IMG/VR virus record: IMGVR_UViG_3300000292_000107
Direction: 5' to 3' (one strand)
Source of the DNA: a virus
Taxonomy: Duplodnaviria > Heunggongvirae > Uroviricota > Caudoviricetes
DNA: 13,162 nt
The notes beneath the pieces are model-generated. The model saw nothing but the letters and a program-made list of their open reading frames with translations, had not been told where the DNA came from and made no database searches. The position numbers and the translations under genes were made by a program. Below are positions 1,141 to 9,423 of the stretch, one piece after another (the stretch's first letter is position 1; the number at the start of each line of letters is the position of its first letter).

Positions 1141-3516
1141 ATGACAGTAAAAATTTCTGGCGTGCTTAAAGATGGCACAGGAAAACCAGTACAGAACTGC
1201 ACCATTGTGCTGAAGGCCAGACGAACCAGCAGCACGGTGGTGGTGAACACGGTGGCCTCTGAAAATCCGGATGAAGCCGGACGTTACAGCATGGATGTTG
1301 AGCATGGTCAGTACAGCGTCACCCTGCTGGTTGAAGGTTTTCCGCCTTCACATGCCGGGACCATTACCGTCTATGAAGGTTCCAGACCAGGTACGCTGAA
1401 TGATTTTCTCGGTGCCATGACGGAAGATGATGTCATGCCGGAGGCATTGCGTCGTTTTGAGGCAATGGTGGAAGAAGCGGCACGCAACGCCGAAGCCGCC
1501 TCTCAGAGCGCAGCGGCGGCAAAGAAATCCGAAACTGCAGCGGCATCATCGAAGAACGCAGCGAAAACCTCAGAAACGAATGCAGCTAATAGTGCACAGG
1601 CGGCAGCGACCTCAAAGACTGCATCGGCAAACTACGCGACAGCAGCCAAAAAATCAGAAACCAACGCGAAAAATAGCGAGACAGCCGCAAAGACGAGCGA
1701 AACCAACGCAAAGTCCAGCCAGACGGCAGCGAAGACCAGCGAAACGAATGCTAAAGCCAGTGAAACTGCAGCAAAAAACAGCCAGGTTTCAGCAGCCCAA
1801 AGCGAGAGTGCCGCTGCCGGTTCTGCGACTTCAGCTGCCGGATCAGCAACTGCTGCGGCTAACAGCCAGAAAGCTGCGAAGACGAGTGAAACTAACGCAA
1901 AGTCCAGCCAGACGGCAGCGAAGACCAGCGAAACGAATGCCAAAGCCAGCGAAACTGCGGCGAAAAACAGTCAGGATGCAGCAGCCCAAAGCGAGAGTGC
2001 CGCAGCTGGTTCTGCAAGTGCGGCGGCTTCTTCTGCCACTGCATCAGCCAACAGTCAAAAAGCTGCAAAAACCAGTGAAACCAACGCAAAGGCGAGCGAG
2101 ACTGCGGCGGCTAACTCGGCGAAAGCATCCGCTGCAAGCCAGACAGCAGCTAAAGCAAGTGAGGATGCAGCCAGAGAGTATGCAAGCCAGGCTGCGGAGC
2201 CGTATAAACAAGTATTGCAGCCGCTTCCTGATGTGTGGATACCATTTAACGATTCACTGGATATGATTACGGGGTTTTCGCCGTCATATAAAAAGATTGT
2301 TATTGGTGATGATGAAATAACGATGCCTGGCGATAAGGTTGTAAAGTTTAAACGCGCATCGAAAGCAACCTATATTAATAAATCTGGTGTGCTGACAGAG
2401 GCTGCCATTGACGAGCCACGATTTGAACGTGATGGCCTGCTTATTGAGGGGCAAAGAACAAACTACATGCTCAATTCGGAAAGCCCTGCCAGTTGGGGGC
2501 GATCGTCAAATATGGATGTGCCCGAAACAGGGACGGATAATTTTGGTTTTACCTATGGAAAGTTTGTCTGCAACGATTCTCTGATTGGGCAAACCTCAGC
2601 CATTAATATGGCATCAATTGCTGCAACAAAGTCAGTTGATGTCTCAGGCGATAATAAACACGTGACAACCTCATGTCGTTTTAAAACAGAACTGCAGGTA
2701 AGGTTGCGTATCCGGTTTGATAAATATGACGGTAGCGCAACAACTTTTCTTGGTGATGCGTATATTGATACACAAACGCTTGAAATTAATATGACAGGCG
2801 GTGCTGCCTCAAGGATTACAGCGAGAGTCAGAAAGGACGAAGCTACCGGATGGATTTTTGCAGAGGCAACAATTCAGGCAATTGATGGGGAGTTAAAAAT
2901 AGGTTCTCAGATACAGTATTCTCCTAAGCAGGGCGGGGCAACCGTATCTGGTGACTATATTTATCTGGCCACCCCACAAGTAGAAAATGGGCCTTGTGTA
3001 TCATCTTTTATTATATCAGGAACGACGGCGGCGACCCGCGCAAGCGATATAGTTACAGTTCCCATTAAGAATAATCTTTATAATCTTCCTTTTACGGTTC
3101 TTTGTGAGGTACATAAGAACTGGTATAAAACGCCAAATGCAGCGCCGCGTGTTTTTGATACCGGCGGTCATCAAACCGGAGCGGCTATTATTCTTGGGTT
3201 CGGATCTGCGGCAGATGGGCCAGACGGATTTCCTTATTGCGATATTGGAGGAGCTAACAGACGGGTAAACGAAAACGCATCGCTTGAAAAAATGGTTATG
3301 GGGATGCGTGTAAAATCAGATCAGTCTACGTGCTCAGTAAGTAACGGGCGCATATCCAGCGAAAAAAAGACTACGTGGTCCTATATTCAGAACTCTGCAA
3401 CCATCCGTATTGGAGGCCAGACTACAGCAGGGTCACGTCATTTATTTGGTCATATCAGGAATTTCAGAATATGGCACAAGGCATTGACTGATGCTCAGGT
3501 GGGGGAGTCAATCTAA
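1141..3516 (+). CDS. stf: Side tail fibre protein (Stf-like) with lambda-like N-terminal anchor, Ala/Ser/Thr/Lys-rich repeat shaft and a divergent C-terminal LamG/ConA-like domain
   Basis: 791-aa ORF. The first ~110 aa (MTVKISGVLKDGTGKPVQNCTI...GRYSMDVEHGQYSV...FPPSHAGTITVYE) resemble the lambda Stf N-terminus as I recall it. The middle is built of KTSETNAK-type repeats. The C-terminus ends LFGHIRNFRIWHKALTDAQV, which looks like a laminin-G/ConA-like jelly-roll terminus. Position after lom matches lambda. Confidence 0.85.
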   Translation: MTVKISGVLKDGTGKPVQNCTIVLKARRTSSTVVVNTVASENPDEAGRYSMDVEHGQYSVTLLVEGFPPSHAGTITVYEGSRPGTLNDFLGAMTEDDVMPEALRRFEAMVEEAARNAEAASQSAAAAKKSETAAASSKNAAKTSETNAANSAQAAATSKTASANYATAAKKSETNAKNSETAAKTSETNAKSSQTAAKTSETNAKASETAAKNSQVSAAQSESAAAGSATSAAGSATAAANSQKAAKTSETNAKSSQTAAKTSETNAKASETAAKNSQDAAAQSESAAAGSASAAASSATASANSQKAAKTSETNAKASETAAANSAKASAASQTAAKASEDAAREYASQAAEPYKQVLQPLPDVWIPFNDSLDMITGFSPSYKKIVIGDDEITMPGDKVVKFKRASKATYINKSGVLTEAAIDEPRFERDGLLIEGQRTNYMLNSESPASWGRSSNMDVPETGTDNFGFTYGKFVCNDSLIGQTSAINMASIAATKSVDVSGDNKHVTTSCRFKTELQVRLRIRFDKYDGSATTFLGDAYIDTQTLEINMTGGAASRITARVRKDEATGWIFAEATIQAIDGELKIGSQIQYSPKQGGATVSGDYIYLATPQVENGPCVSSFIISGTTAATRASDIVTVPIKNNLYNLPFTVLCEVHKNWYKTPNAAPRVFDTGGHQTGAAIILGFGSAADGPDGFPYCDIGGANRRVNENASLEKMVMGMRVKSDQSTCSVSNGRISSEKKTTWSYIQNSATIRIGGQTTAGSRHLFGHIRNFRIWHKALTDAQVGESI
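1640..2110 (+). repeat. Nested in-frame tandem repeats inside stf: two full 189-bp units plus partial flanking copies, built from 24-27-bp sub-repeats
   Basis: Unit 1 at about 1691-1879 and unit 2 at about 1880-2068 are near-identical (anchors AAGTCCAGCCAGACGGCAGCGAAGACCAGCGAAACGAATGC at 1711 and 1900; GCAGCCCAAAGCGAGAGTGCCGC at 1792 and 1981). The period of 189 nt is 63 codons. Confidence 0.85.
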
Positions 3517-3806: not shown

Positions 3807-4847
3807 ATGGCTACATCGACAGTAATTCCTGATGACATCAAAACGCTAAAATCCGATGTTAGCAAATTAAAAAACGATCAAGGAAGCTACGTAACAAAAT
3901 CATATGTAGACAGCAAAAATGAAACCGTTAATGACTGGTCTGCTGCATGGTATCAGCAGGTACTGCCAACTAGCGGAGCTATATTTGGGCGAAAACTTCG
4001 CTCAACTCACAGGACGGCAGGTGTTGAGGATGCGTATTGCGAACTATACCTCAAAAAATGGATAGACAGTCCAGGTAACGCAATGGCGCGCCTTAACCTG
4101 AACGATAACGGGACAAACATTTGCTGGGACTTTACCAACCTTTATGGCGGTACGATGATTTTTCCCGGTGACAGCGGATACCTCAAAATGGGTAACTGCC
4201 TTATGTCATACAGCAAGCGTGGAAGTAACGCGCTTATTAAATTTGATTACACCGACACATTACAGATCAAATATGCCAATCATGGGTCAACCATGACATT
4301 AAACACACAGGGAACCGCTTATGCTGGTGTTACTGCTCAATTGTGGGGCAACTCCAGCCGTCCTGTTGTTTATGAAGTCGGTGTTGATGGTGGCGCTTAT
4401 ATGTTCTATGCGCAGAAAAATACCGATAACACCTATATGTTAAGCGTTAATGGTGCATGTCATGCCACCGCATTTAACCAGCATTCCGACCGGGATCTGA
4501 AAGACAACATTCAGGTGATCGATAATGCAACCGACCGCATCCGTAAAATGAACGGCTATACATACACGCTTAAAGAAAACGGTATGCCCTATGCTGGTGT
4601 CATTGCACAGGAAGCTCTGGAAGCAATCCCAGAAGTTGTAGGTTCCGCAATGAAATATCAGGACGGTGCAAGCGGATCGGAAGGTGAAGAAGGTGAACGT
4701 TATTACACAGTAGATTATTCTGGTGTTACTGGCTTGCTTGTTCAGGTAGCCAGAGAGTCAGACGACAGAATAACAGCACTGGAAGAAGAAAACGCAGAAT
4801 TAAGACAAAGATTATCTGCAATTGAGGCGGCGCTTGCGTCTAAATAA
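3807..4847 (+). CDS. Tail fibre/tailspike-like protein with C-terminal peptidase-S74 intramolecular chaperone domain
   Basis: 346-aa ORF with SD GAGGAAG upstream. The C-terminal ~120 aa begin SDRDLKDNI (Ser at codon 227, nt 4485-4487, with Lys five residues later), then NGYTYTLKENGMPYAGVIAQEALEAIPEVV...YYTVDYSGVTGLL and a terminal coiled-coil (ITALEEENAELRQRLSAIEAAL). This matches the autoproteolytic chaperone domain of endosialidase and T5 pb1-type fibres. Confidence 0.75.
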   Translation: MATSTVIPDDIKTLKSDVSKLKNDQGSYVTKSYVDSKNETVNDWSAAWYQQVLPTSGAIFGRKLRSTHRTAGVEDAYCELYLKKWIDSPGNAMARLNLNDNGTNICWDFTNLYGGTMIFPGDSGYLKMGNCLMSYSKRGSNALIKFDYTDTLQIKYANHGSTMTLNTQGTAYAGVTAQLWGNSSRPVVYEVGVDGGAYMFYAQKNTDNTYMLSVNGACHATAFNQHSDRDLKDNIQVIDNATDRIRKMNGYTYTLKENGMPYAGVIAQEALEAIPEVVGSAMKYQDGASGSEGEEGERYYTVDYSGVTGLLVQVARESDDRITALEEENAELRQRLSAIEAALASK

Positions 4848-4853
4848 TATCAA

Positions 4854-4876
4854 GGGGCCGAGCGCCCCGTTTTATT
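4854..4876 (+). terminator. Candidate rho-independent terminator ending the fibre operon
   Basis: GGGGC (4854-4858) pairs with GCCCC (4864-4868) around a 5-nt loop, followed by TTTT at 4870-4873. Confidence 0.5.
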
Positions 4877-4889
4877 GGGTAGGATGAAA

Positions 4890-5177
4890 ATGGATATAAC
4901 ACCTTTCCTTCATGCGCTTTGTGCTGTGGCTGCGCAGCTACTGATTGGTCTTTTTACCGGGAACTGGGCTTACGGGGCGATAGCCGGTTGTACGTTCTTC
5001 ATTGCGCGTGAACACACCCAGGCAGAATATCGCTGGATTGAAATGTTTGGGCATGGCAAGAGGATTAACATGCCGTGGTGGGGCGGTTTTGATCCGCGCG
5101 TGTGGGATGTGGCAAGCCTGATGGATTTTGCTGTGCCGGTGGTGGCGTGTCTGCTGATCTGGATGTTGATCCGTTAA
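4890..5177 (+). CDS. Small hydrophobic membrane protein of unknown function (prophage moron)
   Basis: The track ORF starts at a TTG (4875). In-frame ATGs lie at 4884 and 4890; AGGA at 4881-4884 is well spaced for 4890. The protein has two or three predicted hydrophobic helices (FLHALCAVAAQLLIGLF, AIAGCTFFIA, FAVPVVACLLIWMLI). Confidence 0.55.
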   Translation: MDITPFLHALCAVAAQLLIGLFTGNWAYGAIAGCTFFIAREHTQAEYRWIEMFGHGKRINMPWWGGFDPRVWDVASLMDFAVPVVACLLIWMLIR

Positions 5178-5180
5178 ATA

Positions 5181-5227
5181 TAAAAAGTAAAAAGCCGCAG
5201 TAACTTGTCATGATAGGATACTGCGGC
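5181..5227 (-). terminator. Candidate terminator for the dinI-like gene
   Basis: 9-bp stem GCCGCAGTA (5194-5202) / TACTGCGGC (5219-5227) around a 16-nt loop; on the minus strand it is followed by a T-rich run (complement of 5181-5193). The large loop is atypical. Confidence 0.4.
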
Positions 5228-5294
5228 TGGCTGGTTAACTTTCGATAGTGCGAGTATTGAATGATTTCCAGCCGTTACTGATTTTACGTGCTAA

Positions 5295-5543
5295 TTAGTG
5301 AACAAACCACTCGTCAGCAGACTCCCAGGTATCTTTCAGAGTTTCCTGAACAAAAGTTTTAGCTGAATCTTTATCGGCGGTGCGCGTAACAGAAAGGCCA
5401 TCGTTGCTGGTGGCTTTTACGATCACCTCTACATCGTCATAACGTTTACTGATGCGTCGGGTTAATTCTTCCTTTAACGCATCCACAGCACCGTTTGGCA
5501 TTTTAGTCATTTTTTCTTTGGCTATGCAGATCTCAATACGCAT
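5295..5543 (-). CDS. dinI: DinI-family protein (SOS-inducible RecA modulator homologue, prophage-encoded)
   Basis: 82-aa [12 protein letters not shown]...[13 protein letters not shown]...LSV...[16 protein letters not shown] shares the conserved blocks of E. coli DinI as I recall it. SD GAGGGA lies 6 nt upstream and two LexA boxes immediately upstream of that. Confidence 0.85.
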
Positions 5544-5556
5544 AAAAGTCCCTCTA

Positions 5557-5576
5557 TACTGTGTTTGTATACAGTA
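5557..5576 (-). promoter_or_regulatory. LexA box 1 (SOS operator) proximal to the dinI-like start
   Basis: TACTGTGTTTGTATACAGTA fits the CTGT-N8-ACAG consensus with AT-rich spacer; it lies 14 nt upstream of the dinI ATG. Confidence 0.8.
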
Positions 5577-5584
5577 TTATTTTT

Positions 5585-5604
5585 AACTGTATGGATAAAC
5601 AGTG
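5585..5604 (-). promoter_or_regulatory. LexA box 2, directly abutting the integrase stop codon
   Basis: AACTGTATGGATAAACAGTG fits CTGT-N8-ACAG. It is 28 bp centre-to-centre from box 1 and ends 1 nt before the int stop (5605-5607). Confidence 0.7.
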
Positions 5605-6702
5605 TCAAGAGGTCTTATTTCTGCTCCTTTGGAGCTCTTCAAAACGATTATGTAAAGATTTCGGATACAGTTCGGTATATACCTGCCATAGCACGTTTAA
5701 TGAACGATGCCCTGTAACCTGAGCGACTTCCTCAATACTAAAACCAGCCTCAAATAAGCGACTTGCCCCTTCTCTACGCAAATCATGGTATCGCAGATCT
5801 TTAATACCTAATTTGCTTCTTACCCTCTGAAATCCTGCAGTAACAGAAGTGCTGTTATATGGAAAAATGAATTCCGATTTTTTGGGCTGTCGTTGGACGA
5901 TATCCCAGGCTTCCCCAAGCAAGGCTACTTTCATGTGGTTGCCTTCCTTTTTGCGTGGATCTTTCCTGTCTCTTACGAGTATAGATTTTTGTTCCTGGTC
6001 GAGATCTTCCCATCGTAACCGGCATACTTCTCCGATCCGCATACAGGACCACACAGAAAATTTGAGGATATCAACGAACGGAATTTTTGAGCATTTATGA
6101 GTAGATCGTTGTTGAAGGCCTTCAATGAGCATGTCCAGTTCATCAGATGCTGGTCTACGATTCCGACGGTTTGATTTACCAATCAAACCAAGTTTAAGTA
6201 GATATGGGCGAGCGCTTTTCGCCGGGTTTGATGTGTAATTAATTCCGTATACAGGTTTGGCCGCATCCAGAACACTGCCAAGATAACTAACATCGTGGCT
6301 GACTGTTGCTGGACCTGCACCAGCGTTGTTTCTTAGCCTGCAATGTTCAATTACGTCATTTTCTGTCAGTTCAGATAGTTTGATCGCGGAGATGTCACTA
6401 TCCATAAGCAGTTCCAGCACATATCTTTTAGTACGGCCTGCTTTACCTCCGGCATTTGGGTCATTTAAATATTTGTGTAGTAAGTCACGGACTGTAAGTC
6501 CGTCAACTGGATTTGATGATGGAATGCCATATAGATCTAATTCCATCACTTTCTGTGTTCCCCATGTTTTGGCATGAGCATGTTTAGGGAATGTTTTGCT
6601 TTCCCTGTAAGTGATAACACCTTTTTCTTTGATAATCACATTACAGCGATAGCGTGGTGTGCCATCGGATTTTAGTCGTTTCTCTATGTTATAGTACGCC
6701 AT
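5605..6702 (-). CDS. int: Tyrosine recombinase / phage integrase (dusA-associated integrase type)
   Basis: 365-aa ORF with tyrosine-recombinase catalytic signatures in the C-terminal half (R in CMRIGEVCRLRWEDL; YHDLRREGAS box; GHRSLNVLWQVY with the catalytic Tyr). SD GAGG upstream. It lies divergent to, and 88 bp from, the dusA start. Confidence 0.9.
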   Translation of the reverse strand: MAYYNIEKRLKSDGTPRYRCNVIIKEKGVITYRESKTFPKHAHAKTWGTQKVMELDLYGIPSSNPVDGLTVRDLLHKYLNDPNAGGKAGRTKRYVLELLMDSDISAIKLSELTENDVIEHCRLRNNAGAGPATVSHDVSYLGSVLDAAKPVYGINYTSNPAKSARPYLLKLGLIGKSNRRNRRPASDELDMLIEGLQQRSTHKCSKIPFVDILKFSVWSCMRIGEVCRLRWEDLDQEQKSILVRDRKDPRKKEGNHMKVALLGEAWDIVQRQPKKSEFIFPYNSTSVTAGFQRVRSKLGIKDLRYHDLRREGASRLFEAGFSIEEVAQVTGHRSLNVLWQVYTELYPKSLHNRFEELQRSRNKTS

Positions 6703-6721
6703 TACACGACCTCGTTATTTC

Positions 6722-6757
6722 GGGTTCCCATAAAACGTGGGAACCTGTGCGGGAACC
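6722..6757. promoter_or_regulatory. Inverted plus direct repeat in the int-dusA intergenic region; candidate integrase or regulator binding site
   Basis: GGTTCCCA (6723-6730) and its inverted copy TGGGAACC (6738-6745) flank a 7-nt spacer, and GGGAACC recurs at 6751-6757. It lies 20-55 bp upstream of the int ATG and has no flanking T-run, so it is not a terminator. Confidence 0.4.
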
Positions 6758-6790
6758 TAACGCGAGAAAAATAGCCTGAAATGTTCAAAA

Positions 6791-7828
6791 ATGCACGATA
6801 ATCATGAAACACAAAAAATTAATCAAACCAGCGTGATGCCTGAAAAAACTGGTGTTTACTGGAATTCTCGGTTTAGCATTGCTCCTATGCTTGACTGGAC
6901 GGACAGACATTGCCGTTATTTCTTGCGTCTGCTTTCCCGCAATACGTTGCTGTATACCGAAATGGTGACCACAGGGGCGATTATTCACGGTAAAGGTGAT
7001 TACCTGGCGTACAGTGAAGAAGAACATCCGGTAGCGTTGCAACTCGGGGGTAGCGATCCGGCGGCGCTGGCACAGTGTGCGAAGCTGGCAGAAGCGCGTG
7101 GATACGATGAGATCAACCTGAATGTCGGCTGCCCGTCTGACCGGGTGCAGAACGGCATGTTTGGTGCGTGTCTGATGGGTAATGCGCAGCTGGTTGCCGA
7201 CTGCGTGAAAGCGATGCGCGATGTGGTGTCGATTCCGGTGACGGTGAAAACGCGTATTGGCATCGATGATCAGGACAGCTATGAATTTCTCTGCGATTTC
7301 ATCAACACCGTTTCCGGCAAAGGTGAGTGTGAGATGTTCATCATCCACGCACGTAAAGCCTGGCTTTCTGGGTTAAGTCCGAAAGAAAACCGTGAGATCC
7401 CGCCTCTCGATTATCCGCGTGTGTATCAACTGAAGCGTGACTTTCCGCATCTGACGATGTCGATTAACGGTGGTATCAAGTCGCTGGAAGAAGCTAAAGC
7501 GCATTTGCAACATATGGATGGCGTGATGGTCGGGCGCGAGGCGTATCAGAATCCGGGGATTCTGGCGGCGGTAGACCGAGAGATTTTTGGTTCCTCGGAT
7601 ACCGATGCCGATCCGGTGGCGGTAGTGCGCGCCATGTATCCGTACATTGAGCGTGAACTCAGCCAGGGTACGTATCTCGGCCATATTACCCGGCATATGC
7701 TGGGCTTGTTCCAGGGTATTCCTGGCGCGCGGCAGTGGCGGCGTTATTTAAGTGAAAATGCCCATAAAGCGGGTGCAGACATTAATGTGCTGGAACACGC
7801 GCTCAAACTGGTAGCGGATAAGCGTTAA
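6791..7828 (+). CDS. dusA: tRNA-dihydrouridine synthase A
   Basis: 345-aa ORF with the Dus-family FMN-binding core ([32 protein letters not shown]) as recalled for enterobacterial DusA. No clear SD at 6791; an in-frame ATG at 6836 (MPEKT...) is an alternative start. Confidence 0.9.
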
Positions 7829-8370: not shown

Positions 8371-9423
8371 ATGGAATCAATAGGCTGGAACCCTGCGTCG
8401 CCCGGCTTTCCAGAATCTCATGCGCACGCCGCGCATCCTTCAGCGGATATTTCTGCTGCTCGGCGACATCGACCTTAATCACACCGCTGGCAATCAAAGA
8501 GAACAGTTCATTACTGGCCTCGGTTAATTCCTCCCGCGTGGTGATATAGCCTTGCAGGGAAGGGCGTGTCACATACAACGAGCCTTTCTGATTGAGAATG
8601 CCTAAGTTCACACCGGTAACCGCACCTGATGAGTTGCCAAAACTCACCATTAAGCCGCGGCGTTGCAGGCAATCCAGCGACCGTTCCCAGGTGTCTCTGC
8701 CCACTGAATCGTACACCACGCGCACTTTCTTACCACCGGTGATCTCTTTCAATCGCTCGACCAGATTCTCTTCACGATAGTTAATAACCTGCCACGCGCC
8801 CGCTTTTAGCGCACTCTGCGCTTTTTGCGNNNNNNNNNNNNNNNNNNNNNNNNNNNNNNNNNNNNNNNNNNNNNNNNNNNNNNNNNNNNNNNNNNNNNNN
8901 NNNNNNNNNNNNNGCCGATAAGTTTCGCGCCCAGGGCTTTTGCCCACTGGCAGGCAATCAAGCCAACGCCGCCAGCCGCTGCGTGGAACAGGAACTGTTC
9001 ATCGGGTTTAATTTCATAGGTTTTGCGCAGCAGATAATAAACCGTTAAGCCTTTCAGGAAGGATGCCGCAGCTTGCTCAAAAGAAATTGCCGCAGGCAGA
9101 ATCGCCGCTTTATCTGCATTAATGTTATGCACAGAGCTGTAAGCGCCTAATGCCGATTGTGCATAGACTACGCGATCGCCTGCCTTAATATGCTTTACAC
9201 CACTGCCGACTTTACTCACGATGCCTGCCGCTTCGGTACCTAATCCGCTGGGTAGCGATGGCGGCGGGTAAAGGCCGCTGCGGATATACGTGTCGATAAA
9301 ATTGATGCCGATGGCTTTATTTTCGACCTGGATTTCATTCTCCGCCGGATCGGCAGGAGTGAACTCTACGGCTTGAAGTACTTCCGGGCCACCGTGCTTG
9401 TGAAATTCAATTCGTATTGCCAT
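8369..9423 (-). CDS. qorA: NADPH:quinone oxidoreductase (zeta-crystallin family), interrupted by an 84-N run at 8830-8913
   Basis: The two minus-strand track ORFs (8806..9423 and 8369..8947) are the N- and C-terminal parts of one Qor-like protein (GAGGVG nucleotide-binding motif; C-terminus ...ESRATQGSSLLIP). SD AAGGAG lies upstream of the ATG at 9423. The parts are in different frames across the N run. Confidence 0.8.

Follow-up and report, generated by a model that had tools for sequence, protein, structure and literature searches.

The locus considered here raises the question of whether two LexA-box palindromes, lying between an integrase gene (int) and a dinI-like gene of a phage, place the dinI-like gene under the SOS control of the bacterial host, and what such an arrangement would mean for the phage. 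The window, i.e., the whole 13,162-bp stretch of DNA that was analysed, corresponds to the right-hand end of a lambdoid, mEp460-like prophage that has integrated into E. coli dusA at the 5′ end of that gene. An initial sequence-only reading had described the element as a prophage, and this description is borne out. The identities that it assigned to int and the dinI-like gene also stand, with matches to the Pfam families PF00589 and PF06183, respectively (Table 1).

Table 1 Features of the dinI unit and the adjoining integrase gene, ordered by position in the window.
Feature	Position	Strand	Sequence	Basis and remarks
Intrinsic-terminator-like hairpin closing the dinI unit	5182–5228	−		Sequence and fold
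DinI-like protein gene (82 aa + stop)	5295–5543	−		Matches to PF06183, phrog_189 and PDB 1GHH/7YWA
Shine-Dalgarno (SD) sequence	5549–5555	−	AGAGGGA	Read from sequence; GAGG core 7 nt before ATG
LexA box 1 (proximal)	5557–5576		TACTGTATACAAACACAGTA (minus strand)	Exact CTGT-N8-ACAG; PWM 23.7 bits; heterology-index-like value 4.9
−10 element of dinI promoter	5579–5585	−	TAAAAAT	TAAAAA with 17-nt spacer or AAAAAT with 18-nt spacer
LexA box 2 (distal)	5585–5604		CACTGTTTATCCATACAGTT (minus strand)	Exact CTGT-N8-ACAG; PWM 21.7 bits; heterology-index-like value 6.3
−35 hexamer of dinI promoter	5603–5608	−	TTGACA	Promoter scan; overlaps int stop codon
Tyrosine integrase gene (int), dusA-targeting type	5605–6702	−		ORF list, translation, Pfam PF00589, PHROG integrase families

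Prophage setting

The int ORF matched PF00589 with an E value of 1.1e-20, and the annotation of the same gene in the genome NZ_CP178648.1 (100% identical) gives an integrase oriented divergently to dusA. It starts at 6702, while dusA starts at 6791 on the opposite strand, i.e., a tyrosine recombinase gene lies at the edge of the element, adjacent to and divergent from the 5′ end of dusA, as is characteristic of the dusA-specific integrase family (described in PMC4482086). The prophage repressor is a 217-aa LexA-family (S24) protein whose gene adjoins cro, a second ‘LexA family’ protein of the prophage comprises 108 aa, and the dinI-like gene is placed between the tail-fibre genes and int.

Two strong LexA boxes overlap the dinI promoter

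Both palindromes have the coordinates and sequences given in the sequence-only reading. The positions in Table 1 are those of 20-mers; the 16-bp palindromes themselves, which have the form of gammaproteobacterial LexA operators (minimally CTG-N10-CAG, AT-rich in the centre), span 5559–5574 (box 1, centre ATACAAAC) and 5587–5602 (box 2, centre TTATCCAT). No other exact CTGT-N8-ACAG match occurs in the window. By chance 0.14 matches are expected, and two or more occurred in 1 of 200 shuffles of the window. Site strength, for which scoring with a position weight matrix (PWM) had been proposed, was assessed using a symmetric PWM constructed from 18 sites that are documented for E. coli LexA (table in PMC3009722). 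The documented sites scored 13.2–28.2 bits on this matrix in sample and 6.6–27.6 bits in leave-one-out scoring, and both boxes fall inside the range of these sites and above the top score found across 200 shuffled windows (19.2 bits). The third-best site in the window reached 8.0 bits, and no further LexA site above 8 bits was detected by the PWM scan of the window, including the region upstream of int. Heterology-index-like values derived from the same matrix (4.9 and 6.3 for the boxes) compare with 5.7 for recA, 5.9 for sulA and 6.1 for chromosomal dinI.

The boxes are embedded in a sigma-70-type promoter, TTGACA-N18-AAAAAT, which was identified by a promoter scan (10 of 12 matches) and is annotated identically, overlapping the int stop, in the mEp460 GenBank record. 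The int stop codon (TGA, 5605–5607) lies inside the −35 hexamer and is directly abutted by box 2, which ends at 5604, as had been noted from the sequence. Although both boxes do lie within the 61-bp gap between the two genes (5544–5604), they do not fill it entirely, as had been stated, but cover 40 of the 61 bp, the rest being the −10 and SD region. The −10 element matches the consensus at only 4 of 6 positions, in two possible registers, and TAAAAAT is invariant in two alignments of the promoter unit, with a cross-genus consensus of TAAAnAT. Box 2 sits in the spacer between the −35 and −10 elements, while box 1 follows directly after the −10 and probably covers the transcription start, which is predicted ~6–8 nt past the −10. 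The boxes therefore overlap the promoter elements or the predicted start site of the gene they would regulate, as is typical of LexA operators. The SD region is purine-rich and conserved in alignments, and the dinI-like ATG is located at 5541–5543.

A predicted monocistronic gene for a DinI-family protein

The DinI-like ORF matched PF06183 along the whole profile (positions 1–63 of 63; 70.8 bits against a cutoff of 24.2, E 1.2e-19) and E. coli DinI (PDB 1GHH/7YWA) with an E value of 7.9e-13, and its length of 82 aa agrees with that of the DinI family (about 80 aa). The C-terminal motif WESADEWF corresponds to the family form WESADDWF, an acidic helix implicated in RecA interaction, and residues E74, A76, D77, W79 and F80 are shared by all of 12 homologues, E. 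coli DinI among them. By homology to E. coli DinI, it is plausible that the phage protein binds RecA filaments and modulates their co-protease activity. The match to phrog_189 (E 4.4e-31) is confined to the C-terminal (DinI) half of that family, positions 71–149 of 151. A Tum-type fusion protein (about 146 aa) was considered as an identity for the gene product and rejected on the basis of this partial match and the missing N-terminal half.

Approximately 70 nt past the dinI stop codon, the sequence forms a hairpin with the stem AGCCGCAGUA / UACUGCGGCU and a loop of 16 nt, followed by UUUUUACUUUUU, and the fold of 5170–5300 (minus strand) has a dG of −30.1 kcal/mol (z −3.56). This hairpin was missed by a simple terminator scan because its loop exceeds 8 nt. 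The only minus-strand ORF downstream (48 aa, 5065–5211) starts in the terminator loop, runs antisense to a conserved membrane-protein gene (PHROG-1443) and is not credible as a gene. With a terminator present and no credible ORF after dinI, the unit is predicted to be monocistronic. An Rfam scan of 4700–6900 at E ≤ 1 returned one spurious miRNA match only. In Klebsiella, dinI gives rise to the 3′UTR sRNA DinR (PMC10907235). The 3′UTR segment at 5221–5288 in the window is also found alone at prophage ends and in scars that lack dinI, and it is therefore not a dinI-specific RNA.

The DinI-like protein could alternatively be an induction trigger in its own right, either as an antirepressor like Tum of phage 186 or as part of a Gifsy-type operon, rather than a RecA modulator. 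In 186, PSP3, Fels-2 and the Gifsy phages, antirepressors under LexA control are associated with DinI sequences by linkage or fusion (PMC3121763), and the C-terminal half of 186 Tum is DinI-like. However, the 82-aa protein has no Tum-like N-terminal half, there is no credible ORF between dinI and its terminator, no Gifsy-like antirepressor gene was found downstream of dinI, and the CI repressor of the prophage is of the S24 type and should cleave itself. A role as trigger is thus quite improbable, and modulation of RecA is the preferred reading of the protein.

The promoter-dinI unit is modular and its LexA-contact positions are conserved

The unit extending from the −35 to dinI was found behind at least four unrelated upstream sequences, comprising a dusA-type int, an intrinsic terminator and two further unrelated sequences. 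Homology between these contexts starts at the −35 in each case, marking it as the left boundary of the conserved unit. Upstream contexts were drawn from a scan of viral contigs, in which all matches were 98–100% identical proteins, while divergence data were obtained from tblastn against phages and an alignment-based scan of genome contigs. The possession of its own promoter and terminator, together with its occurrence in several contexts and at varied positions within phages, is characteristic of a phage ‘moron’. As the unit also occurs without int upstream, the abutment of the int stop codon and the promoter has the appearance of a recombination junction, not of a coupling by design. The sequence-only reading had raised the possibility that LexA occupancy affects read-through from int, for which no support was found. 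The unit is present in 26% of complete E. coli genomes, Stx phages included, and promoter-plus-dinI units occupy up to 8 places per genome in E. coli.

The proximal LexA box precedes dinI homologues across the Enterobacterales. A site of at least 12 bits was located 13–19 nt before the ATG in 10 of 12 diverse phage dinI genes, and CTG-N10-CAG occurred no more than 80 nt upstream at 75 of 80 dinI-like loci in one-genome-per-species contigs. The second box is kept in the 82-aa DinI subfamily, which includes representatives from Escherichia, Shigella, Mixta, Erwinia and Pantoea. Across genera the double box is maintained at offsets of 24–29 bp, and the box centres and flanks diverge: the CTG/CAG arms reach 91–100% conservation, and the centres 36–88%, over the distinct 20-mers compared (25 proximal, 22 distal). 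Over ~47 distinct box variants from many genera, conservation is thus concentrated in the arms contacted by LexA. The variable spacing argues against phased cooperative binding, and any benefit of the second box is therefore conjectural.

These patterns bear on a further possibility, namely that the palindromes exert their main effect as RNA, in transcripts reading through from int, with LexA binding secondary. Box 2 would pair with box 1, and CCUCU from the last int codons with the dinI SD, forming a long hairpin that would attenuate read-through or block translation of dinI from int transcripts. Consistent with this, the segment 5530–5640 (minus strand) folds with a dG of −25.6 kcal/mol (z −3.5), CCUCU being paired to the SD AGAGG in this fold, and the promoter and terminator scan placed no terminator between int and dinI. 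However, two LexA palindromes pair automatically, so the hairpin is an expected by-product, and it has no U-tract typical of terminators. Moreover, conservation of the unit extends to contexts whose upstream sequence has neither int nor CCUCU, some variants in the int context have CCCCU with no compensating change in the SD, and conservation tracks the LexA-contact positions rather than helix covariation. A primarily RNA-level function is therefore very unlikely.

It is less probable again that a repressor of the phage, and not host LexA, is the ligand of the operators, which would make dinI part of an immunity circuit. The prophage does encode two ‘LexA family’ proteins, the 217-aa CI-like protein and the 108-aa protein, but the latter may be too short to hold both DNA-binding and S24 domains. 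In contrast, the boxes fit the host LexA matrix as well as those of recA and sulA, and chromosomal dinI genes have the same kind of box. The same sites also occur in VT1-Sakai, BP-4795 and mEp460 and in prophages of Erwinia, Mixta and Pantoea, and it is plausible that no single phage repressor could serve all of these phages. That both palindromes are functionless chance matches, for which the only argument is how often short palindromes generally occur in AT-rich intergenic DNA, can be dismissed, given two sites in a single 61-bp gap where 0.14 are expected per window, PWM scores exceeding those of all 200 shuffled windows and, above all, the cross-genus conservation of the sites, which effectively refutes it.

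Comparison with known LexA-controlled dinI genes

Host LexA therefore remains the preferred ligand, and a close described counterpart of the gene is H0001 of prophage VT1-Sakai (GenBank AP000400), where the dinI-like protein is 96% identical to that in the window and the promoter, proximal box and SD are laid out in the same way. In the VT1-Sakai record, a feature labelled ‘LexA protein, putative SOS box’ precedes the gene by 14 nt and a ‘putative promoter’ is also marked, and box 1 is homologous in position to this SOS box and to the LexA box of Gifsy-2 dinI. In contrast, the VT1-Sakai unit adjoins the yehV att site, whereas that in the window follows int, and the VT1-Sakai boxes score lower, at 16.3 and 14.3 bits. 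Neither the VT1-Sakai nor the mEp460 record marks the distal box that lies in the promoter spacer. Equivalent genes are also present in mEp460, cdtI, BP-4795 and many Stx1 and Stx2 phages.

The presence of more than one LexA site per promoter is established for lexA, recN and the colicin genes. For example, recN has three LexA boxes and lexA two (PMC8072944). Compared with these multi-operator SOS promoters, the boxes in the window are positioned exactly in the −35/−10 spacer and on the predicted start site, and the spacing, which varies over 24–29 bp among homologues, does not suggest cooperative sites that are phased or that overlap.

Experimental precedent comes from the Gifsy prophages. 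The dinI homologues of Gifsy-1, -2 and -3 have a LexA box just upstream, as in the window, and have been found by experiment to be under LexA/mitomycin-C control via the proximal box (PMC3121763; PMC8072944), with nalidixic acid inducing them 4.6- to 23-fold (PMC8072944). Non-polar deletion of the Gifsy-1 and Gifsy-3 homologues left induction unchanged (PMC3121763). The Gifsy dinI unit is preceded by a terminator, similar to one of the upstream contexts identified for the unit in the window. However, the Gifsy protein is ~42% identical to that in the window and belongs to a short (77-aa) subfamily, and its gene is preceded by one box instead of two, at 19 nt from the ATG. The Gifsy gene heads an operon in the nin region that also contains an antirepressor gene (gfoA/gftA) and irsA, in contrast to the monocistronic arrangement predicted here.

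PhiKO2 and Serratia phage OS31 similarly carry a DinI-like gene downstream of the tail-fibre genes and in opposite orientation, with a near-consensus LexA box 14 bp upstream (PMC7556043). These phages differ in host and in the single box reported, and in OS31 translation of a second, downstream gene is coupled to that of the DinI-like gene (PMC7556043), unlike in the window. The PhiKO2 gene is reported to be LexA-regulated (PMC7556043). Chromosomal dinI genes of E. coli, Salmonella and Klebsiella encode proteins of the same family, with the WESAD(D/E)WF helix and ~49% identity, but lie in a core-genome context. The E. coli copy has one documented box, ACCTGTATAAATAACCAGTA, while Salmonella dinI is listed with two (PMC8072944). 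In Klebsiella, the box overlaps the start site and is covered by LexA ChIP (PMC10907235). Papers on the EHEC transcriptome cover chromosomal dinI only or leave out repeated lambdoid genes, and no direct expression data for the prophage gene were found in them.

A probable self-contained, SOS-controlled accessory unit

Site scores, overlap with the promoter, conservation of the arms and the Gifsy experiments all point to SOS control of the dinI-like gene, in agreement with the original proposal. The locus is very probably a self-contained, SOS-controlled phage accessory unit, or moron, consisting of a sigma-70 promoter, two host LexA operators, dinI and a terminator. In an undamaged cell, a LexA dimer bound to either site would exclude RNA polymerase, and the presence of two good operators would be expected to keep repression tight and to set a high threshold for induction. 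Following DNA damage, RecA filaments would trigger LexA self-cleavage and the promoter would fire, producing a monocistronic mRNA for the 82-aa DinI homologue that would end at the hairpin terminator. By homology, the protein may then bind RecA filaments and modulate their stability and co-protease activity, and this activity may be of benefit to the phage. The same filaments would also drive self-cleavage of the prophage’s own S24-type CI repressor.

A more specific version of this model, in which the two-operator design is itself functionally specific, is considered unlikely. Here, the distal box, which abuts the −35, and the box-to-box hairpin sequestering the SD of transcripts that read through from int would limit DinI to the LexA-gated promoter and to high, sustained SOS, and DinI would tune RecA-stimulated cleavage of CI, setting the threshold of, or commitment to, induction.

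Significance for temperate phages and their hosts

The two-box dinI arrangement is real, but it is common, ordinary and already described in related phages. Annotation of LexA-controlled dinI homologues on temperate phages goes back to 2000 (VT1-Sakai), and such control has been demonstrated experimentally in Gifsy and, reportedly, in PhiKO2. The conserved second operator, which was not found annotated in the examined records, adds a small detail. Strains with several copies of the unit would add several copies of a RecA modulator, identified as such by homology, to their SOS regulon. Statistical associations have also been reported between prophage DinI-like genes and both quinolone-resistance emergence and drug susceptibility in ST95 (PMC10575684, PMC10783064). 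If true, a functionally specific two-operator design would provide a testable role for many phage-borne dinI genes.

Predicted LexA operators and promoter of the dinI-like gene

The 61-bp gap between int and the dinI-like gene carries two LexA boxes, as a sequence-only reading had claimed, and SOS control of this prophage dinI is supported as the main interpretation. On the minus strand, positions 5608-5541 read TTGACA-CTGTTTATCCATACAG-TTAAAAATAATA-CTGTATACAAACACAG-TATAGAGGGACTTTT-ATG, and exact CTGT-N8-ACAG matches at 5559-5574 and 5587-5602 are the sole ones in the 13,162-bp window (0.14 expected by chance; at least two in 1 of 200 shuffles). Scored, as that reading had proposed, with a LexA position weight matrix (strand-symmetric and built on 18 documented E. 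coli sites; table in PMC3009722), boxes 1 and 2 reached 23.7 and 21.7 bits, against 8.0 bits for the next best site in the window and 19.2 bits for the top site across 200 shuffled windows. The same matrix gave recA, sulA and chromosomal dinI 22.5, 22.3 and 22.1 bits, with heterology-index (HI)-like values of 5.7, 5.9 and 6.1, compared with 4.9 for box 1 and 6.3 for box 2.

Features of the dinI-like unit and its neighbours in the window
Feature	Position	Strand	Description
Upstream ORF (int)	5605-6702	minus	365 aa; TGA at 5605-5607
-35 hexamer	5603-5608	minus	TTGACA; consensus promoter scan
Box 2 (distal, spacer LexA box)	5585-5604		CACTGTTTATCCATACAGTT
Box 1 (proximal LexA box)	5557-5576		TACTGTATACAAACACAGTA
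Shine-Dalgarno (SD) sequence	5549-5555	minus	AGAGGGA; upstream of dinI-like ATG
dinI-like ORF	5295-5543	minus	82 aa; start at 5543
Terminator-like hairpin	5182-5228	minus	10-bp stem AGCCGCAGUA/UACUGCGGCU, 16-nt loop, U-run; closes dinI unit
Membrane-protein gene	4890-5177	plus	phrog_1443, function unknown

The predicted promoter (TTGACA, 18-nt spacer, AAAAAT) matches the consensus at 10 of 12 positions, TAAAAA after a 17-nt spacer being an equivalent reading of the -10 register, and the identical promoter is annotated in the GenBank record of mEp460, where it overlaps the int stop codon. Box 2 starts within the last two bases of the -35 and occupies the whole spacer, and box 1 starts 3 nt past the -10, so that it would span the predicted transcription start site. 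Downstream, the region 3' of the dinI-like stop has a fold z of -3.56; its hairpin, which stands immediately past the stop of the convergent membrane-protein gene, went undetected by a simple terminator scan because of its long loop. No credible ORF was found between the dinI-like gene and this hairpin, and the predicted unit is thus monocistronic.

The gene product matches the Pfam DinI family (PF06183; 70.8 bits versus a cutoff of 24.2) and E. coli DinI (PDB 1GHH, 7YWA; E 7.9e-13), and it keeps the C-terminal WESADEWF helix. Against phrog_189 ('RecA filament binding protein DinI'; E 4.4e-31), it aligns with no more than profile positions 71-149 out of 151. The Tum-like N-terminal antirepressor half is therefore absent, and a Tum-like antirepressor fusion was rejected.

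Precedents, conservation and modularity

LexA control of phage dinI genes is already known. For example, the VT1-Sakai record (AP000400) places a promoter and an element labelled 'LexA protein, putative SOS box' ahead of H0001, whose DinI is 96% identical to that of the window. In Gifsy prophages, a LexA-box region adjoining the dinI homologues is needed for mitomycin-C-dependent expression, and dinI regions are conserved in many enterobacterial prophages (Lemire et al. 2011, PMC3121763); in a 2021 Salmonella SOS survey, the Gifsy dinI genes had HI values between 3.9 and 5.3 and were induced 4.6- to 23-fold (PMC8072944). Similarly, in PhiKO2 and Serratia phage OS31 a LexA box stands 14 bp ahead of a DinI-like gene that runs opposite to the tail fibres (PMC7556043). 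The window locus is therefore a further copy of an already described type of unit, and the second, spacer-located operator, with its cross-genus conservation, is the sole detail for which no annotation was found in the records examined.

Of 80 near-identical copies of dinI from IMG/VR contigs, all those with enough upstream sequence carried both boxes; five of them departed from the exact pattern, by no more than a CTGG arm or a spacing change of 1 nt. The unit was found behind at least four unrelated upstream sequences, namely a dusA-type int 3' end (30 loci with the exact junction pattern, others with sequence variants), an intrinsic terminator (7 loci), VT1-Sakai/BP-4795-type sequence (6 loci) and a fourth type (loci L079 and L081), and in all four the homology starts at the -35 hexamer. 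The earlier claim that box 2 abuts the int stop codon holds, and the TGA lies inside TTGACA; given the shared boundary, this abutment looks like a recombination junction, and the int ORF merely extends to that TGA.

DinI homologues occurred in 133 phage records, including Stx1a, Stx2a, Stx2c, cdtI, BP-4795, Klebsiella, Yersinia and Aeromonas phages and Gifsy-2. Across 12 diverse phage dinI genes, 10 had a 12-28-bit site 13-19 nt before the ATG, and the distal box was confined to the 82-aa subfamily. A scan of one genome per species retained 80 loci, spread over dozens of species that were mostly Enterobacterales. CTG-N10-CAG was found no more than 80 nt ahead of the dinI-like start in 75 of these loci; in three Yersinia loci it lay ~310 nt upstream, probably reflecting a gene order like that of phage YeP1, where the corresponding box stands ahead of a gene preceding dinI. 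Double boxes, offset by 24-29 bp and with the distal box always abutted by TTGACA, were found in Escherichia, Shigella, Mixta, Erwinia and Pantoea members at ~56-59% protein identity, while Rosenbergiella had the spacer box only, and Kosakonia and Entomohabitans the proximal box only. The CTG/CAG arms were 91-100% conserved and the centres 36-88% (25 proximal and 22 distal 20-mers, all distinct), a constraint pattern that would be expected of LexA contacts. Of 5,426 complete E. coli genomes, 1,409 had the unit (at least 80% of the query), and one genome could hold as many as 8 places with any match to it.

Close dinI-like units with E. coli-type LexA boxes also occurred in assemblies labelled Chryseobacterium, Saccharibacteria MAG, Wohlfahrtiimonas MAG and Vagococcus (L102, L103, L104, L145), most likely through contamination or mis-binning of enterobacterial DNA. 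In BP-4795 (L085 248-1908) and VT1-Sakai (L092 1501-2106), a 'putative avirulence protein' gene and a YkgJ-like ORF, respectively, follow the LexA-controlled dinI promoter on the same strand, so these cargo genes might be SOS-co-induced.

Prophage context

The window matches E. coli VTB96815v (NZ_CP178648.1) at 100% identity and there forms the right end of a ~45-kb lambdoid prophage (L095) ordered J, lom, side tail fibre, tail-fibre assembly, small membrane protein, dinI-like gene and int, followed by chromosomal dusA, pspG and qorA; the nearest sequenced phages are mEp460 and relatives. The int product is a tyrosine recombinase whose gene is divergent to the dusA 5' end, as described for the dusA-specific integrase family (PMC4482086). 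An 88-bp interval (6703-6790) separates the starts of int (6702, minus) and dusA (6791, plus) and must therefore contain the att junction and both promoters. The opposite prophage end (L095 36257-39617) stands beside zur, yjbJ, dinF and lexA, ~3 kb from host lexA, which is probably coincidental because LexA acts in trans. The immunity repressor, adjoining cro, is a 217-aa LexA-family (S24) protein, and induction is therefore expected to depend on RecA-stimulated repressor self-cleavage.

Outside the window, the prophage holds more exact CTGT-N8-ACAG matches at L095 25318-25333 and 21842-21857, and host lexA's own box was recovered at 39647-39662 as a positive control. CTGTTCATAAATACAG is in the gap that separates rusA from a KilA-N-domain gene and stands ~100 nt ahead of that gene, which might thus be LexA-controlled and, at a guess from its domain name, antirepressor-type; CTGTTTATTTTTACAG falls just inside a DNA methyltransferase gene, at its 5' end as annotated. 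Periodic one-mismatch CTGC...ACAG matches come from tandem repeats at 1657-2171 (periods 189, 42 and 21 bp; 79-83% matches in the 189-bp arrays) in the side tail-fibre gene (1141-3516, plus), which are ordinary for a tail-fibre shaft. Runs of N (masked or unknown bases) occupy 831-840 and 8830-8913, the latter within the region annotated qorA in the matching genome.

Many E. coli genomes also hold the dinI 3'UTR segment 5221-5288 (~70 bp) alone, unaccompanied by dinI. One copy adjoins ybhB/bioA in E24377A, near the lambda attachment region, and another lies at a prophage end beside zinT. The segment is apparently a sequence common at lambdoid ends or junctions. PGAP calls ~5218-5298 (plus strand) a 'capsid protein' pseudogene, a doubtful label.

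Possible read-through from int

The terminator scan found no terminator between int and the dinI-like gene, so read-through into dinI is possible; an effect of LexA occupancy on it had been suggested, but nothing points to a LexA roadblock. With low probability, a hairpin in the read-through RNA could silence dinI translation from int transcripts: in the modelled RNA (5530-5640, minus; dG -25.6 kcal/mol, z = -3.5) boxes 2 and 1 are predicted to pair, and CCUCU in the last int codons to pair with AGAGG of the dinI SD. However, pairing between the boxes is automatic for two copies of one palindrome, and CCUCU is missing from some int-context variants.

Possible implications for induction of the prophage

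Under SOS control of dinI, LexA at either operator would occlude RNA polymerase, and with two operators of recA/sulA-like strength, repression should be tight and the induction threshold high; the spacing of the boxes varies, which speaks against phased cooperative LexA binding. DNA damage would lead to LexA self-cleavage and synthesis of the phage DinI, which by homology would bind RecA filaments. E. coli DinI is reported, among other activities, to stabilise filaments and to inhibit co-protease reactions (Lusetti 2004, Voloshin 2001 and Yasuda, cited in PMC3121763 and PMC10575684). Non-polar deletion of dinI did not significantly alter induction of Gifsy-1 or Gifsy-3 (PMC3121763). As RecA filaments in this lysogen would also drive cleavage of the S24-type CI, we infer that the phage DinI could modulate prophage induction.
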